This document shows positions 1-6,051 of a DNA stretch of 6,051 bases, one piece after another. Under the pieces are notes generated by a model. It made no database searches, was not told the origin of the DNA, and worked only from the letters and a program-made list of their open reading frames with translations. Origin of the DNA: Escherichia phage ID62; the sequence record NC_007824.1. One strand, written 5' to 3'. Every line of letters begins with the position of its first letter. Within the stretch, counting starts at the first letter, position 1. The position numbers and the translations under genes were made by a program.

Positions 1-25
1 TTGTTGACATTCCCTAAACCCTTAT

Positions 26-65
26 GAGACTCTTGCTTCAACGAAATGAAGTTGGAGTCTTTTTT
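26..65 (+). terminator. Imperfect 14-bp stem-loop followed by a T6 run, immediately downstream of the H stop; candidate post-H terminator and/or translational control element
   Basis: Pairs 26-32 with 55-61 (GAGACTC/GAGTCTT, one G-U) and 35-40 with 47-52 (GCTTCA/TGAAGT, one G-U), with T33-G54 as a further wobble, T34/T53 mismatch and 6-nt loop 41-46; TTTTTT at 60-65. phiX174 is known to have a weak terminator after H. Stem is AT-rich, so the call is tentative. Confidence 0.35.
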
Positions 66-434
66 ATGAAACCTGCTCACCGCCTTACTCACCCTGTTCT
101 TGGTTCATGGTTGTTTAAGTGCCCCGTCTATGTTCGTTATGAGTCTGTTCACAATGGTCGCCTTATCAAGGTTCGCGCTGTTCGTGATTTGTCTCCTCGC
201 CAGCAACTGATTGCTAACCCTAAAAATTGTTTTGACGTTGTCATTGTTGAGATTGACTTCACTTATTGCTCTGTTACCTATTTTGATTATGAGGCTGAGG
301 AATATGCTGAGTGTGGCCCAGAGACTATGGATAGCATCATTGCTTATATTAACGCTCCTCACTCCCTTCGCTCTGAGGAGGATTTATCCGTTGATGTTGA
401 TGATATGGAATGGCTCTATGAAATTGCGGAGTAA
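66..434 (+). CDS. Hypothetical protein, 122 aa, basic N-terminal half and strongly acidic C-terminal tail (H-A intergenic ORF 1)
   Basis: ATG at 66 preceded by GGAG (54-57) at 8-nt spacing; open to TAA at 432-434; codon third positions strongly T-biased (gtt, cgt, gct, cct, ctt), as in the canonical genes here. The ORF track starts it at ATG 24, which has no SD. No similarity to any phiX174 protein that I recognise. Confidence 0.5.
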   Translation: MKPAHRLTHPVLGSWLFKCPVYVRYESVHNGRLIKVRAVRDLSPRQQLIANPKNCFDVVIVEIDFTYCSVTYFDYEAEEYAECGPETMDSIIAYINAPHSLRSEEDLSVDVDDMEWLYEIAE

Positions 435-437
435 ATC

Positions 438-527
438 ATGGAAACTGTTATCGGAAAATTTATTGCTCTGGCTGTTGTTGCTCTTATGCTGTATGGAATT
501 TCCCGTTTGATTCGGAGGTTCCCGTGA
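438..527 (+). CDS. Small hydrophobic peptide, 29 aa (METVIGKFIALAVVALMLYGISRLIRRFP), predicted single transmembrane helix with basic C-terminus (H-A intergenic ORF 2)
   Basis: ATG at 438 with GGAG (428-431) 6 nt upstream, starting 3 nt after the ORF 1 stop; TGA at 525-527. Hydrophobic core FIALAVVALMLYGI followed by RLIRRFP. Below the length cut-off of the supplied ORF track. Confidence 0.4.
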   Translation: METVIGKFIALAVVALMLYGISRLIRRFP

Positions 528-700
528 AATATTTTAGTTTGGTTGATGAACATTATGCTTATTGCCTTGATACAAGGATTTTGCATATCACTCGCAGTCG
601 TGTTTCTGACCCTCGGTATGAGCGTCGCTTTCTTACTGATGAGGAGCATCTTGCACTTTTGGATTGGTTGAAAAATCGCCCAGCTTACATTAATTCTTGA
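524..700 (+). CDS. Hypothetical protein, 58 aa, GTG start (H-A intergenic ORF 3)
   Basis: GTG at 524-526 overlaps the ORF 2 stop (ccGTGA, 4-nt overlap typical of translational coupling); GGAGG at 514-518 with 5-nt spacing; TGA at 698-700; T-ending codons throughout. Translation MKYFSLVDEHYAYCLDTRILHITRSRVSDPRYERRFLTDEEHLALLDWLKNRPAYINS. Start codon choice is uncertain. Confidence 0.45.
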   Translation: MKYFSLVDEHYAYCLDTRILHITRSRVSDPRYERRFLTDEEHLALLDWLKNRPAYINS

Positions 701-726
701 CAGACCTTTAAAATACCCTCTATATT
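697..726 (+). promoter_or_regulatory. Candidate sigma70 promoter for gene A (pA-like)
   Basis: Consensus -35 TTGACA at 697-702, 18-nt spacer, -10 TATATT at 721-726; about 34 nt upstream of the gene A ATG; phiX174 has a promoter at the equivalent position. Confidence 0.5.
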
Positions 727-759
727 GCTCTCATAGTTTCACTATGAGGGCTTTTTCGC

Positions 760-2244
760 ATGGCTACTGAAATTTTCTCTGATGTTGTAAAGGCTGTTTG
801 GTCGCATGCTACGGCTAAGCACGCTCATCTTCGTATGGCTGTTCAGGTTGATAATCGTAGCCGTCTTCTTTCTGACCTCGTTTATCAGTTGGAAAAACGC
901 CTTTCTGAAGAGACTCATTTGGATGATGAGACTCTTGCCGTTTATGAATTTCAGACTGCCCTTCTGGAAGACCATATGGCACTGGTTCGGAAGTGTGCTG
1001 CTCAACTTGATAATAGTAACACTATAGACCACCGTACCCCTTTGGATGCCGAATGTGTTTTTCTGTTTGAAATGATTTGTCCGGGTGTTCGCTACGGTAA
1101 AACGTTGAATTCTCTTTGGACTAAGTATGTTGTTCAATGGCCTGAGAAGTTAATCCGTCAGGAGTTGGACATGGTCAAGCCTTTATCTTTTAAAGATGAG
1201 GTTGCTAAGTACATGGAGAAAATGCAGGAAAAAACACGCAAAAATCGCATGACTCAGAAGGTGATTAATGAGATGCGTATTGCTCACCAAAAGGGCTGGT
1301 TCTTTGTATTTGATACGTTGACTCTTGCTGATGACCGTTTGCAGGCTTTTAATGAAAACCCTAATGCTCTTCGTGATTATTTTAGGACTGTTGGTCGAGC
1401 TGTTTTGCGCGCTGAAGGTCGTTCGGTTAAGGATTCCTACAACGACTGCTATCGCTATCTTTGTGTGCCGGAGTTTGGAGGCCAGCACGGCCGTCTTCAT
1501 TGGCACGTTGTGCATATGGTGCGGACTCTTCCTTTGGGAAGTCACGACCCTAATTTCGGTCGCAAGGTACGTAATTATCGCCAGATTAACTCGTTCCGCG
1601 GTATGTGGCCTTATGGTTTCACGCAACCGATAGCTGTTCGCTATCAACATGATGCTTATTCTCGTAAAGGTTGGCTTTGGCCTGTTGACAAATTAGGAAA
1701 AGCAATGCAGAGTAAGCCGTATCAGGCGGTCGCATGGTATGTGACCAAGTATGTAGCCAAGCAATCTGACCAACGTCAGAAAGCTATTACTGAGAGACAA
1801 AAAAAATGCAAGAATCCACTCATGGCAATCTGTCTGAAAAAGGAATTCAGAGTTCGCAGCAGCCGGAAGCTCGGAATGGAGCTCCCTTCGATGGCTCACC
1901 TCAGCAACAAGGTTCTTCTGGAACTGAGCCGAATCAGCTTCGATTCCAGTCCTCTGTATCAGATAGTGAAAGAGAACGCCAAAAAGCAATTGACCTTGAA
2001 CATCGGCGCGCTGCCTTTGCACGTCATTTTGGATGTGCGCCCGGAAGTGAGAAGTATGTTGAAAAATATCCGTCGTTTGATGAAAAAGACACCCGAGTTC
2101 AATTGTCAGAGTTCTATCGCTTCAATGACGGTCACCTTAAAAAATGGGGATATTTCTGATGAAGCACGTCGATACATTATTGATGCAGGAATTACGCCTT
2201 TTGATTTGCGAGCTAAAGCGACTCAGACTTTCGGCGGTAAGTGA
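760..2244 (+). CDS. A: Replication initiation protein A (HUH rolling-circle endonuclease), 494 aa
   Basis: ATG 760 with GAGG at 747-750; contains HUH motif LHWHVV (His247/His249) and twin-tyrosine motif WYVTKYVAK (Tyr327/Tyr331); region KGWFFVFDTLTLADDRLQAF matches the phiX174 A/A* sequence from memory; contains the origin 30-mer. Confidence 0.95.
   Translation: MATEIFSDVVKAVWSHATAKHAHLRMAVQVDNRSRLLSDLVYQLEKRLSEETHLDDETLAVYEFQTALLEDHMALVRKCAAQLDNSNTIDHRTPLDAECVFLFEMICPGVRYGKTLNSLWTKYVVQWPEKLIRQELDMVKPLSFKDEVAKYMEKMQEKTRKNRMTQKVINEMRIAHQKGWFFVFDTLTLADDRLQAFNENPNALRDYFRTVGRAVLRAEGRSVKDSYNDCYRYLCVPEFGGQHGRLHWHVVHMVRTLPLGSHDPNFGRKVRNYRQINSFRGMWPYGFTQPIAVRYQHDAYSRKGWLWPVDKLGKAMQSKPYQAVAWYVTKYVAKQSDQRQKAITERQKKCKNPLMAICLKKEFRVRSSRKLGMELPSMAHLSNKVLLELSRISFDSSPLYQIVKENAKKQLTLNIGALPLHVILDVRPEVRSMLKNIRRLMKKTPEFNCQSSIASMTVTLKNGDISDEARRYIIDAGITPFDLRAKATQTFGGK
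1003..1032 (+). other. Viral (+) strand origin of rolling-circle replication, 30-mer recognised by protein A; predicted nick between G1009 and A1010
   Basis: CAACTTGATAATAGTAACACTATAGACCAC versus the phiX174 origin CAACTTGATATTAATAACACTATAGACCAC as I recall it: flanking blocks identical, differences confined to the AT-rich spacer. Confidence 0.8.
1213..2244 (+). CDS. A*: A* protein, in-frame internal initiation within gene A (about 343 aa)
   Basis: In-frame ATGs at 1213 and 1222 (MEKMQEKTRKNRMTQKVINEMRIAHQKGW) align with the phiX174 A* N-terminus (MKSRRGFAIQRLMNAMRQAHADGW) from memory; GAGG at 1198-1201 upstream. Which ATG is used cannot be decided from sequence. Confidence 0.45.
   Translation: MEKMQEKTRKNRMTQKVINEMRIAHQKGWFFVFDTLTLADDRLQAFNENPNALRDYFRTVGRAVLRAEGRSVKDSYNDCYRYLCVPEFGGQHGRLHWHVVHMVRTLPLGSHDPNFGRKVRNYRQINSFRGMWPYGFTQPIAVRYQHDAYSRKGWLWPVDKLGKAMQSKPYQAVAWYVTKYVAKQSDQRQKAITERQKKCKNPLMAICLKKEFRVRSSRKLGMELPSMAHLSNKVLLELSRISFDSSPLYQIVKENAKKQLTLNIGALPLHVILDVRPEVRSMLKNIRRLMKKTPEFNCQSSIASMTVTLKNGDISDEARRYIIDAGITPFDLRAKATQTFGGK
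1806..2159 (+). CDS. B: Internal scaffolding protein B, 117 aa, encoded inside gene A in a different frame
   Basis: C-terminal EFYRFNDGHLKKWGYF matches the phiX174 B C-terminus (AEFYRFHDAEVNTFGYF) from memory; ATG 1806, TGA 2157-2159. Confidence 0.9.
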   Translation: MQESTHGNLSEKGIQSSQQPEARNGAPFDGSPQQQGSSGTEPNQLRFQSSVSDSERERQKAIDLEHRRAAFARHFGCAPGSEKYVEKYPSFDEKDTRVQLSEFYRFNDGHLKKWGYF

Positions 2245-3072: not shown

Positions 3073-4356
3073 ATGTCTAATGTACAGACTTCCGCTGAAC
3101 GTATTCCCCATGACCTGTCTCATCTGGTTTTTGAAGCAGGTAAAATTGGTCGCTTAAAAGTTGTTTCTTGGACTCCTGTTGTTGCAGGTGATTCTTTTGA
3201 GCTTGATATGGTTGGCGCTATTCGCCTTTCTCCGCTTCGTCGCGGTCTTGCTGTTGACTCTCGCGTTGACCTGTTCACGTTCTATGTCCCTCACCGTCAT
3301 ATTTATGGTGAAGAGTGGATTCAGTTTATGAAAGATGGCGTTAATGCTAAACCTCTTGCACCTGTGACTTGTTCGCGTGGTTGGGATAGTGCTCAGTATT
3401 TAGGTACAATCCCTTCCAGTACCCTTAAGGTGCCTAAATTTCTTCATCAAGGTTATTTGAATATTTATAATAACTACTTCAAAGCTCCGTGGATGGATGA
3501 CCTGACTTACGCTAACCCGTCCAATATGGAAGGTGAAGACGTTCGTTTTGGTGTTCGTGCTTGTAACCTGAAAACTATTTGGACTGCCCCTTTGCCTCCG
3601 GGTACTGAAACTTCTCATTCTATGAAGACTGAGGCTAACTCTATCGATATTATGGGTTTACAAGCCGCTTATGCTCAATTGCATACTGAGCAGGAGCGTG
3701 ATTACTTCATGACTCGTTATCGTGATATTGTTAATGAATTTGGTGGTAGTACTTCTTATGATGCGGATAATCGTCCTTTGCTTGTTATGCATTCTGAGTT
3801 TTGGGCTTCAGGCTATGACGTCGACGGCACCGACCAAAGTTCTCTCGGTCAGTTCTCCGGACGTGTACAGCAGACCTTTAAGCATTCAGTACCGCGATTC
3901 TTCTGTCCTGAACACGGCACTATGTTCACGCTTGCACTGGTCCGCTTCCCGCCAACTCACGAAATGGAGATGCATTACTTAGTTGGTAAAGAGGATTTAA
4001 CTTATACTGATTTGGCTTGTGATCCAGCTCTGATGGCTAACCTTCCTCCTCGTGAGGTTAATATGAAGCAGTTCTTCCACTCTGGCGATGCTAATGCCAA
4101 GTTTAAGATTGCTGAAGGTCAATGGTATCGTATGCAGCCTGACCGTGTTGCGTTGCCGTATAACTATCTTGATGGCTTCCCGTTCTATAGCGCGATTCCG
4201 TCTAGTGATATTAAGCAGCGTGTTTTGGTCAATACTGACAACTACGATGAGGTTTTCCAGTCTATGCAGCTTGCTCATTGGAATATGCAGACTAAGTTCA
4301 ACTGCACGATTTATCGTAATATGCCGACCACTCGCGATTCCATTATGACTTCTTGA
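3073..4356 (+). CDS. F: Major capsid protein F, 427 aa
   Basis: Length and position after J as in phiX174; AAGGA at 3061-3065 with 7-nt spacing; sequence resembles phiX174 F from memory. Confidence 0.97.
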   Translation: MSNVQTSAERIPHDLSHLVFEAGKIGRLKVVSWTPVVAGDSFELDMVGAIRLSPLRRGLAVDSRVDLFTFYVPHRHIYGEEWIQFMKDGVNAKPLAPVTCSRGWDSAQYLGTIPSSTLKVPKFLHQGYLNIYNNYFKAPWMDDLTYANPSNMEGEDVRFGVRACNLKTIWTAPLPPGTETSHSMKTEANSIDIMGLQAAYAQLHTEQERDYFMTRYRDIVNEFGGSTSYDADNRPLLVMHSEFWASGYDVDGTDQSSLGQFSGRVQQTFKHSVPRFFCPEHGTMFTLALVRFPPTHEMEMHYLVGKEDLTYTDLACDPALMANLPPREVNMKQFFHSGDANAKFKIAEGQWYRMQPDRVALPYNYLDGFPFYSAIPSSDIKQRVLVNTDNYDEVFQSMQLAHWNMQTKFNCTIYRNMPTTRDSIMTS

Positions 4357-5073: not shown

Positions 5074-6051
5074 ATGATAGGTGCCGTTGTAGGTGGTATT
5101 GCTTCAGCCTTAGCCAGTGGAGCCGCTTCTAAGCTGTTTGGTGGCAAACCTGCCGCTCAAGCCGCTACTGAGTCCTCTGGCCTTTCCAATGGTCAAGGTG
5201 TTATTGGTATGGATAATGATGCCGGTATCCAGTCAGCTATTCAGGGTTCTAATGTTCCTAATGGTCAGATTCCCGCTCCCACTCAGACTGGAGGTGTTAT
5301 GGCTGATGCCAAGAATATGATTAAGAATGCCGGTAAGGATTTGCTTGATGGTGTCATGACTGCTGGTAGTGACCGAGTCAAGCAAGCGTTAGTTGATAAA
5401 TTGAGTGGTAATAATGCAAAGAAACAAGGACAAGCAACCCGTGATTACTTGGCTGCGGCCTTCCCTGAGCTCAATGCATGGGAACGTGCTGGAGCTGGTG
5501 CTTCCGGCGCCGGACTGGAATCTTCCGGTCAGGACCAACAGAAGGAGTTGATGCGTATGCAGCTGGATACTCAGAAGGATATTGCTAAGATGCAGATGCA
5601 GAATAATTTGCAGATTGCCGGTATTCAGTCCGCTACTTCTCGTCAGAACACAAAGGATTCTGTTTATGCTCAGAATGAGATGCTTCAGTACAATCAACGT
5701 GAGTCACAGGCACGCGTCGAGTCCATCCTCGCCAATACTGACCTTACGGCTAAACAAGCTACCCATGAAATTATGAGAATGGCTCTTACCCGTGCTCAGG
5801 AGACTGGTCAGCATTTGACTAATAGTCAGATTATGGCTTTGGAGAAGAAAGTTTATGCAGAAATCGGAAAAATTCATCAAGATACTCAAAACGCTCGCTA
5901 TGGTAGCTCTCAAGTTACTGCTACGGCGAAAGACGTTTCGAACATGATTACTGATGCCGCCTCAGGTTTTGGTGATTGGGCCTCTCAACAGTGGAATTCC
6001 TTCTTTAAGGATGGCAAGTCCAACGGTATTCCTCTTAACACTAGAAAATAA
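5074..6051 (+). CDS. H: Minor spike / DNA pilot protein H, 325 aa
   Basis: N-terminus MIGAVVGGIASALASGAASKLFGG and internal RDYLAAAFPELNAWERAGA, IAGIQSATSRQNTKD and VYAQNEML match phiX174 H from memory; AGGAG at 5059-5063. Confidence 0.95.
   Translation: MIGAVVGGIASALASGAASKLFGGKPAAQAATESSGLSNGQGVIGMDNDAGIQSAIQGSNVPNGQIPAPTQTGGVMADAKNMIKNAGKDLLDGVMTAGSDRVKQALVDKLSGNNAKKQGQATRDYLAAAFPELNAWERAGAGASGAGLESSGQDQQKELMRMQLDTQKDIAKMQMQNNLQIAGIQSATSRQNTKDSVYAQNEMLQYNQRESQARVESILANTDLTAKQATHEIMRMALTRAQETGQHLTNSQIMALEKKVYAEIGKIHQDTQNARYGSSQVTATAKDVSNMITDAASGFGDWASQQWNSFFKDGKSNGIPLNTRK

Follow-up and report, generated by a model that had tools for sequence, protein, structure and literature searches.

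Between genes H and A of Escherichia phage ID62 (NC_007824.1) lies a cassette of three small open reading frames (ORFs) on the plus strand. The window, i.e. the whole stretch of DNA analysed here, is the complete, circularly permuted genome of 6051 nucleotides (nt) and belongs to an alpha3-like microvirus (Bullavirinae, Alphatrevirus). We read the cassette as an operon that encodes three small accessory proteins, is specific to this lineage and occurs in alpha3-like microviruses only, and put the probability of this reading at about 0.6. ORF1 and ORF3 code for proteins and are under purifying selection, as their frame-specific substitution and indel patterns show. We are fairly confident that ORF2, located between them, is a real coding gene as well.

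Architecture of the cassette

The window begins with the first base past the gene H stop codon and closes with the end of gene H at 6051. None of the canonical genes (A, B, K, C, D, E, J, F, G and H) is missing. A first-pass annotation of the sequence had put the H-A spacer at 759 nt, against about 60 nt in phiX174. This was confirmed: gene A starts at 760, while the spacer measures 63 nt in phiX174 (H end 3917, A start 3981) and 58 nt in G4. The cassette region is missing from phiX174-like and G4-like phages. The comparison set comprised 13 GenBank Alphatrevirus genomes besides the window and, with redundancy removed, about 17 metagenomic contigs. End-to-end alignment of the window gave 90-92% identity with WA45, WA13, NC3, ID32, NC28 and a dog-faeces microvirus (the nearest record is at 92%) and about 85% with alpha3, St-1 and phiK.

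The same annotation had filled the spacer with three consecutive plus-strand ORFs, each preceded by a Shine-Dalgarno motif. All three are present (Table 1), and the ribosome-binding sites (RBSs) have the spacing it had described: GGAG (54-57) stands 8 nt ahead of ATG66 of ORF1, GGAG (428-431) 6 nt ahead of ATG438 of ORF2, and GGAGG (513-517) 6 nt ahead of GTG524 of ORF3. The junctions are operon-like, as had been noted, with a 3-nt gap (435-437) between ORF1 and ORF2 and a GTGA stop/start overlap (524-527) between ORF2 and ORF3. ORF3 does end at the -35 element of the gene A promoter (PA), its TGA stop codon (698-700) falling within the hexamer TTGACA (697-702). The codon bias towards T-ending codons was also borne out, with shares of 0.53, 0.48 and 0.59 in ORF1, ORF2 and ORF3 and of 0.45-0.61 in the canonical genes. 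The open frame of ORF1 in the window reaches upstream to ATG24. This extension is disrupted by 1-nt indels in relatives, and ATG66 is therefore the conserved start.

Table 1. Features of the H-A region of phage ID62, in window positions
Feature	Position	Strand	Basis
ORF1, 122 amino acids (aa)	66..434	+	conserved ATG66, pN/pS, AlphaFold2 model
ORF2, 29 aa	438..527	+	open in all covering relatives, conserved ATG
ORF3, 58 aa, GTG start	524..700	+	pN/pS 0.10, relatives
H-ORF1 spacer	1..65	+	layout shared with the phiX174/G4 H-A region
Candidate overlapping +1-frame ORF, 30 aa	418..510	+	open in 28/28 sequences
Gene A promoter PA, TTGACA-18-TATATT	697..726	+	11/12 consensus match
Hairpin (727-751) and T-run, between PA -10 and gene A start	727..756	+	folding, terminator-like flag

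Some peculiarities of the junctions may be mentioned here. ORF1 and ORF2 share one reading frame and are separated by TAA plus one codon, so that stop-codon read-through would fuse ORF1 to the ORF2 peptide, a predicted membrane peptide. A metagenomic contig of 761 nt (ENA) carries an in-frame ORF2-ORF3 fusion of 78 aa (P0022). In another ENA contig of 706 nt, the N-terminus of ORF1 is joined to unrelated sequence (P0019, 211 aa), probably through chimeric assembly.

Conservation and selection

The three ORFs occupy equivalent positions, at conserved length, in every relative that covers the region, about 30 genomes with four exceptions, and ORF1 is kept in 13 of the 14 relatives from GenBank as well as in the metagenomic contigs. 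Frameshifts and stops were thus rare in ORF1 and ORF3, which agrees with the expectation of the first-pass annotation for coding sequence. Two of the exceptions concern ORF1: a 1-nt deletion near window position 231 frameshifts it after residue 55 in St-1 (GQ149088), and the 1992 alpha3 record X60322 matches it in two pieces, an apparent frameshift, while the resequenced alpha3 genome (DQ085810) is intact. For each of these, a sequencing error is one possible source and a lesion that a laboratory stock has tolerated another. The other two concern ORF3, which has a 1-nt insertion in one contig and is extended to 70 aa in phiK. There, the equivalent of window positions 697-702 reads TTGGCA in place of TTGACA, a change that both weakens the PA -35 element and removes the ORF3 stop codon. 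Given coverage, the independent gene caller of the contig database always called the 58-aa ORF3 and ORF1 (as 122, 154 or 120 aa); on four contigs it left the 29/30-aa ORF2 uncalled.

Selection was measured as the pooled Nei-Gojobori ratio of non-synonymous to synonymous differences (pN/pS), with the same DNA read in the other two frames as off-frame control. This per-ORF comparison across alpha3-like genomes gave 0.27 for ORF1, 0.34 for ORF2 and 0.10 for ORF3, within the range of the canonical genes (0.06 for A to 0.60 for G), while the off-frame controls of ORF1 and ORF3 lay at 1.0-1.8. The value for ORF2 was not separated from that of its +1 frame. Variable sites at codon positions 1/2/3 numbered 43/34/96 in ORF1 and 13/7/30 in ORF3, a third-position excess similar to that of genes A, F and H. 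The prediction that substitutions concentrate at third positions thus stood for ORF1 and ORF3 and failed for ORF2, where first positions vary more. Indels within the ORFs are of 6 nt (ORF1) and 3 nt (ORF2/ORF3 junction), whereas those in the two flanking spacers (1, 2, 11, 20 and 29 nt) do not preserve a frame. NC29, ID32 and several contigs are junction variants, which despite a 3-nt insertion and substitutions retain both frames and an NTGA overlap; the C-terminus of ORF2 changes from RLIRRFP to RLI(D/S)RTL(R/K) and the ORF3 start from GTG to ATG.

It might be argued that the spacer is non-coding DNA with a regulatory or replicative role and that the ORFs are chance products of a T-rich genome. 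Most GenBank Alphatrevirus records annotate only the 11 canonical genes, and a 2026 paper on an alpha3-like genome lists only these (PMC13029530). T-rich microvirus DNA does keep spurious frames open, for example the +1 ORF 546-671 inside ORF3, which is open in 28/28 genomes; its pN/pS is about 1, and we therefore treated it as a shadow frame. Against such an origin of ORF1 and ORF3 stand their low pN/pS compared with values of at least 1.0 in the other frames, a third-position excess on a par with A, F and H, the restriction to frame-preserving indels, and confident structure predictions (see below). Moreover, when the region was shuffled 2000 times with its dinucleotides preserved, just 0.65% of the shuffles contained a plus-strand ORF of at least 122 aa. 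In these sequence comparisons, the substitution and indel patterns effectively refute a non-coding origin for ORF1 and ORF3, and we consider it extremely improbable for the region. The proposal of a three-gene coding accessory cassette is thereby supported through positional conservation in about 30 genomes, pN/pS and frame-preserving indels.

Other long frames in the region were rejected since they are broken in many relatives. They are the minus-strand ORFs 105-362 and 416-649 and the long +1 ORF 211-510, which is entered in MG945254 as 'similar to hypothetical protein'.

A low-diversity block across ORF2

ORF2 encodes a peptide of 29 aa (METVIGKFIALAVVALMLYGISRLIRRFP). Its frame is open in all relatives that cover it (30 sequences and the divergent contig L050), and its amino-acid changes are mostly conservative (I/V, F/L, A/V, S/A/T). 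Its substitution pattern is atypical, with a diversity of 0.153, 0.007 and 0.065 at codon positions 1, 2 and 3. Ranked among 24-codon windows of single-coding genes, the third-position value is within the bottom 4%. The 15 windows with the lowest values are all inside gene A, and the only single-coding windows below ORF2 are located at window positions 1384-1590, in gene A, presumably the region of the viral-strand origin and the A* start. ORF2 is part of a block, 391-510, that is the least diverse stretch between H and A (nucleotide diversity 0.06-0.07, compared with 0.10-0.44 elsewhere). This pattern points to an additional, overlapping constraint on the sequence of ORF2; for the low diversity of the block, dual coding, a cis-acting element or chance may be considered.

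The conservation might accordingly come mainly from something other than the ORF2 peptide, either from a fourth gene in the +1 frame, as the sole product or one of two, or from a cis-acting nucleic-acid element. The candidate gene is the +1-frame ORF 418-510 (MKLRSKSWKLLSENLLLWLLLLLCCMEFPV), which spans the end of ORF1 and most of ORF2 and whose product has a basic N-terminus and a leucine-rich segment. The block of low diversity ends at its stop codon. By the substitution pattern, the +1 frame fits as well as the ORF2 frame or better; read in this frame, diversity is highest at the third codon position, and the common (high-frequency) variants are synonymous. The ORF is open in L050 too and keeps its basic N-terminus there, although the C-terminus of ORF1 is very different. 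Microviruses typically have overlapping genes (B, K, E), and the literature counts five conserved reading frames in the region, not three (PMC2935103). Several features speak against a gene in this frame. Only 0.17 of its codons end in T, compared with 0.45-0.61 in non-overlapping genes; no convincing RBS precedes ATG418, and relatives do not conserve the two ATGs upstream of it (394 and 400). Some frequent changes are radical (S to L in 13 sequences, R to W in 5), and ATG418 is partly forced by the invariant Tyr-Glu of ORF1. The RBS and ATG of ORF2, on the other hand, are conserved, and the junction rearrangements preserve its frame and the overlap with ORF3. As for a cis-acting element, an RNA structure behind the conservation of 400-530 was rejected, as the segment has no stable fold (z = +1.2) and matches no Rfam family. 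Taken together, we regard a main source of the conservation other than the ORF2 peptide as unlikely and retain ORF2 as the second gene of the cassette.

Flanking sequences and proposed expression

The spacer between H and ORF1 has the length and layout of the entire H-A region of phiX174 (3918-3983) and G4 (1-61). All share, in this order, TTGAC(A/T) a short way past the H stop, a hairpin whose 3' arm contains GGAG, a run of T and ATG. The window sequence TTGGAGTCTTTTTTATG is identical in 16 of 17 positions to phiX174 TTGGAGGCTTTTTTATG, which comprises the terminator and gene A start, and from the shared layout it follows that a promoter-hairpin-RBS module is duplicated on both sides of the cassette. 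Since the 65-nt spacer corresponds to the whole phiX174/G4 H-A region, the cassette looks like an insertion that is accompanied by a second PA and hairpin. A repeat search in 1-800 returned chance-level short repeats only, besides the hairpin at 727-751.

In the first copy of the module, TTGACA at 4-9 is a perfect -35 element without an acceptable -10, and a terminator-like hairpin separates it from ORF1. This hairpin (28-59, -15.4 kcal/mol, z = -5.3) is followed by six T (60-65), was flagged as terminator-like, and has an outer stem that is invariant in 27 of 29 relatives. The RBS of ORF1 sits in its 3' arm. Indels in this spacer (1, 2, 11 or 20 nt) are of the kind expected for non-coding sequence. 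A variant lineage (contigs L033, 2730-3275, and L041, 2922-3465; P0017 and P0018) carries insertions of 20 and 11 nt in place of the hairpin. The canonical ATG of ORF1 is lost in these contigs, and the ORF starts 32 codons upstream, with the acidic extension MKPLTSSEIEVINSAICDLDDSIEEVESLVASAS.

The second copy (697-759) consists of PA, the hairpin 727-751, five T and the gene A start. PA is the best promoter-like site in the genome (11/12 match to the sigma-70 consensus) and is placed with respect to hairpin and gene A just as PA is in phiX174. The hairpin (-15.6 kcal/mol, z = -3.95) was likewise flagged as terminator-like. It is the counterpart of the phiX174 T_H hairpin, harbors the gene A RBS (GAGGG) in its 3' arm, and shows one compensatory double change (pair 734:744, TA to AT) in 7 sequences. 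In the phiX174 record, the PA transcription start (3962) lies inside the equivalent hairpin. Hairpin 727-751 probably ends transcripts that read through the cassette. A 29-nt deletion in NC35, a viable isolate, takes out the PA -10 element and the 5' arm of this hairpin (equivalent to window positions 710-738).

We propose the following route of expression, which we think somewhat more probable than not. The cassette, together with a second gene A promoter and hairpin, would have been inserted at the ancestral start of gene A. It would be transcribed mainly by read-through of the leaky post-H terminator, as the tail of late D-J-F-G-H messages, possibly with a contribution from a weak upstream promoter, and the messages would end at the second hairpin. 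Translation of ORF1 would be low because its RBS is buried in the hairpin, and ORF2 and ORF3 would be translated by coupling to the preceding gene.

Products of the three ORFs

The product of ORF1 is predicted to be a soluble, two-lobed, beta-rich protein; the AlphaFold2 model is mostly beta, with a mean predicted local distance difference test score (pLDDT) of 88.9 and a predicted template modelling score (pTM) of 0.79. The two lobes differ in charge and in variability. The N-lobe (aa 1-65) is basic (isoelectric point, pI, 9.8) and almost invariant, whereas the C-lobe (aa 66-122, 57 residues) is acidic (pI 4.05, net charge -15.5) and variable. pN/pS is 0.10 in the N-terminal and 0.45 in the C-terminal half. 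In sliding windows it ranges from 0.01 to 0.14 across the N-lobe, climbs up to 0.8 at aa 85-99, a predicted helix that is hypervariable, and drops again at the conserved C-terminal motif VDVDDM(E/D)WLYEI.

Several allele classes of the C-lobe exist, and they are spread independently of the clades defined by F, G and H. For example, NC3 and NC35 have the alpha3-type allele, and phiK has the ID21 type. A highly divergent allele was found on contig L050 (Logan SRR20337160; 820-1209, P0029). It encodes 129 aa that are 36% identical to ORF1 of the window, in an ordinary alpha3-like H/ORF2/ORF3/A context with ORF2 and ORF3 close to those of the other genomes. A follow-up search with this divergent ORF1 left it a singleton. 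The shuffled C-lobe alleles and the L050 allele lead us to regard ORF1 as a mosaic, fast-evolving gene with a fixed N-lobe. In L050, the ATG of ORF2 follows directly on the ORF1 stop (TAAATG).

ORF2 reads as a single-pass membrane peptide with one helix. It has the hydrophobic segment TVIGKFIALAVVALMLYGI followed by the basic C-terminus RLIRRFP, and its grand average of hydropathy (GRAVY) is 1.19. Its second codon position is essentially invariant, with T in 52% of codons.

The AlphaFold2 model of ORF3 (pLDDT 80.9) has four beta strands followed by a helix. The start codon is GTG in the window and ATG in some relatives. ORF3 shows some likeness to the C-terminal part of ORF1. The motifs YF..E.YA.C near the start and [DE]WL near the end are common to ORF1 aa 70-120 and ORF3, and blastp gives 50% identity across 14 aa. 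An hhalign comparison of ORF1 aa 70-120 with ORF3 aa 1-52 is collinear (P = 0.023), with predicted secondary structures that disagree mid-way, and on whole profiles the probability is about 1%. These alignments do not establish paralogy; the likeness could stem from an old internal duplication.

Distribution of the cassette

In the searches made so far, the cassette family is found only in alpha3-like microviruses. ORF1 was searched exhaustively and ORF3 less so. When 1.84 billion representative proteins were searched exhaustively with the ORF1 profile (hmmsearch), only 3 clusters came back, none outside the alpha3-like context: the main family, one probably chimeric contig and the divergent L050 allele. 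All clusters that could be placed have the order H-ORF1-ORF2-ORF3-A. In a word-indexed search of 5.8 billion protein clusters, ORF1 and ORF3 were confined to contigs of about 6 kb and to shorter pieces of these. With tblastn, significant matches of ORF1 and ORF3 were confined to alpha3-like phage records (25 records for ORF1), and ORF1 found nothing similar in 72,556 plasmids. A blastn query of 5,426 complete E. coli genomes with the cassette DNA gave nothing similar and thus no donor. Since composition and codon bias of the cassette are those of the resident genome, it was not imported recently; if it was imported, this happened long ago.

The statement that none of the ORFs resembles a canonical microvirus protein holds in these searches: no similarity was detected to the phage's own proteins, and Pfam and PHROG scans of the three ORFs gave no significant match. 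The same was true of NCBIfam and PADLOC scans, which included the 418-510 ORF. Sequence profile searches of the PDB gave no match, and structure comparison no convincing one.

Elsewhere in the genome, the C-D intergenic region of NC29 (2480-2712) is about 190 nt longer than in relatives, which accounts for the genome size of 6259 nt in this isolate.

Possible roles

The cassette is inferred to be dispensable for the basic lytic cycle, given the sequences at hand, because phiX174 and G4 do without it and St-1, a viable laboratory phage, apparently tolerates the ORF1 frameshift. We tentatively suggest, at somewhat less than even odds, that it is a host-directed fitness module that serves in takeover, counter-defence or exclusion. 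The products would be non-structural. ORF2 would insert in the inner membrane; the invariant basic N-lobe of ORF1 would make a conserved contact, while its fast-evolving, recombining acidic C-lobe would engage a variable partner; and ORF3 would act as a small binding module. A known defence or anti-defence protein, such as a DNA mimic of the Ocr/ArdA type, was considered and rejected, as Pfam, PHROG, NCBIfam and PADLOC, none of them dedicated to anti-defence proteins, yielded no match. The only acidic part is the C-lobe of ORF1, which is suggestive of a DNA mimic, not diagnostic.

Several points weigh against an operon of accessory genes with such a role. A function of the cassette has no homology support in Pfam, PHROGs, NCBIfam or PADLOC. 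The pN/pS peak in the ORF1 C-lobe never exceeds 1, so that relaxed constraint explains the rise as well as diversifying selection does. The excess of first- over third-position diversity in ORF2 is not what a simple gene read in one frame would show. If the post-H hairpin terminates efficiently, and with the ORF1 RBS buried in it, there might be very little expression. Finally, the St-1 frameshift could be a sequencing error, since X60322 seems to contain one.

Two other roles were weighed. The cassette proteins could take part in phage DNA metabolism, for example by binding single-stranded or replicative-form DNA or by tuning gene A expression and packaging. We think this unlikely: the structural and profile matches were all generic and below significance, phiX174 and G4 replicate and package without such proteins, ORF3 carries zero net charge at pH 7 (pI 6.8), and ORF1 is acidic overall. 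Still less probable, in our view, is that ORF2, maybe with its neighbours, tunes the timing of lysis or blocks superinfection at the inner membrane. Small phage membrane proteins often have such roles; the microvirus lysis protein E and protein K are small membrane proteins. The short length of ORF2, its hydrophobic segment with basic C-terminus and its extreme sequence conservation would suit this idea. However, it shows no homology to E or K or to holin and exclusion families; as a homologue of E or K it was rejected, since blastp against these proteins of the window gave only chance-level, leucine-rich matches and there was no Pfam or PHROG hit. In an adaptation experiment with St-1, lysis timing shifted with zero mutations in the H-A region (PMC3324380, Table 3), which is weak negative evidence.

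The accessory operon that we favor would have consequences for annotation. Bullavirinae are often treated as fully annotated 11-gene models, and yet the alpha3-like genus has about 640 nt of extra coding sequence. The cassette amounts to about 10% of the genome, is under selection and has no relatives found elsewhere; the three ORFs should be called in every Alphatrevirus genome. Knowing its function would tell us how a minimal single-stranded DNA phage profits from accessory genes, and with a synthesisable genome of 6 kb, its role is easy to test.

Comparison with known genes and systems

The existence of the cassette is already known. Conserved putative genes in the H-A region are credited to Rokyta et al. 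2006 in two later papers (PMC2935103, PMC3324380). As described there, they share with the cassette the clade, the extra region and conservation with no assigned function. The three ORFs are almost certainly among the five frames counted there; as a guess, the overlapping frames 418-510 and 546-671 could make up the remaining two. Phage Lilleven (MK629527) has exactly these three ORFs annotated as hypothetical proteins (QBZ71502, QBZ71503 and QBZ71504). They are collinear orthologues at equivalent positions from the H stop (66-434, 438-527 and 524-700), with identities to the window of 74.6% for ORF1 and 86.2% for ORF3 and an identical ORF2; the Lilleven proteins are known from annotation only. 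The alpha3 record M25640, from the 1980s, has four ribosome-binding sites marked downstream of H. In the literature searched we found no reported function for the cassette genes.

Comparison of ORF3 with PUR repeat and Whirly-like folds gave a sub-significant score, with many unrelated beta-meander proteins scoring higher and no sequence signal. As a single-stranded DNA binder of the PUR, Whirly or PC4 type it was rejected, as no structural match was significant and PC4 was absent from the top 60.

Small accessory products are known from phiX174, where K and A* are not needed for plaque formation and K is membrane-associated. K resembles ORF2 in being a small membrane protein, which for ORF2 is a prediction. 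In contrast to the cassette, which stands alone, K and A* are located within or overlap essential genes, and there is zero sequence similarity.

Another parallel is offered by the morons of tailed phages, extra genes that were inserted between conserved ones and as a rule bring a promoter and a terminator of their own. The cassette differs from them in residing in a 6-kb single-stranded DNA microvirus and in having an upstream promoter copy without a credible -10 element; its composition and codon bias are resident-like, which sets it apart from a recent import, and no donor was found. As a long shot, it might be a microvirus moron with four genes, including a hidden gene at 418-510 and an ORF1 product of new fold that binds a host factor or blocks a defence, the hypervariable acidic helix being maintained by diversifying selection and recombination. 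If this were true, the hidden gene would account for the suppressed synonymous variation, and the moron would aid alpha3-like phages on hosts such as E. coli K-12 and B, which are closed to phiX174 and G4. Irrespective of a fourth gene, the three-gene cassette resembles morons in being extra DNA between conserved genes that is bracketed by promoter- and terminator-like elements, apparently dispensable and mosaic in its alleles, and in the sister phages phiX174 and G4, which are without the insert, the flanking genes are adjacent.

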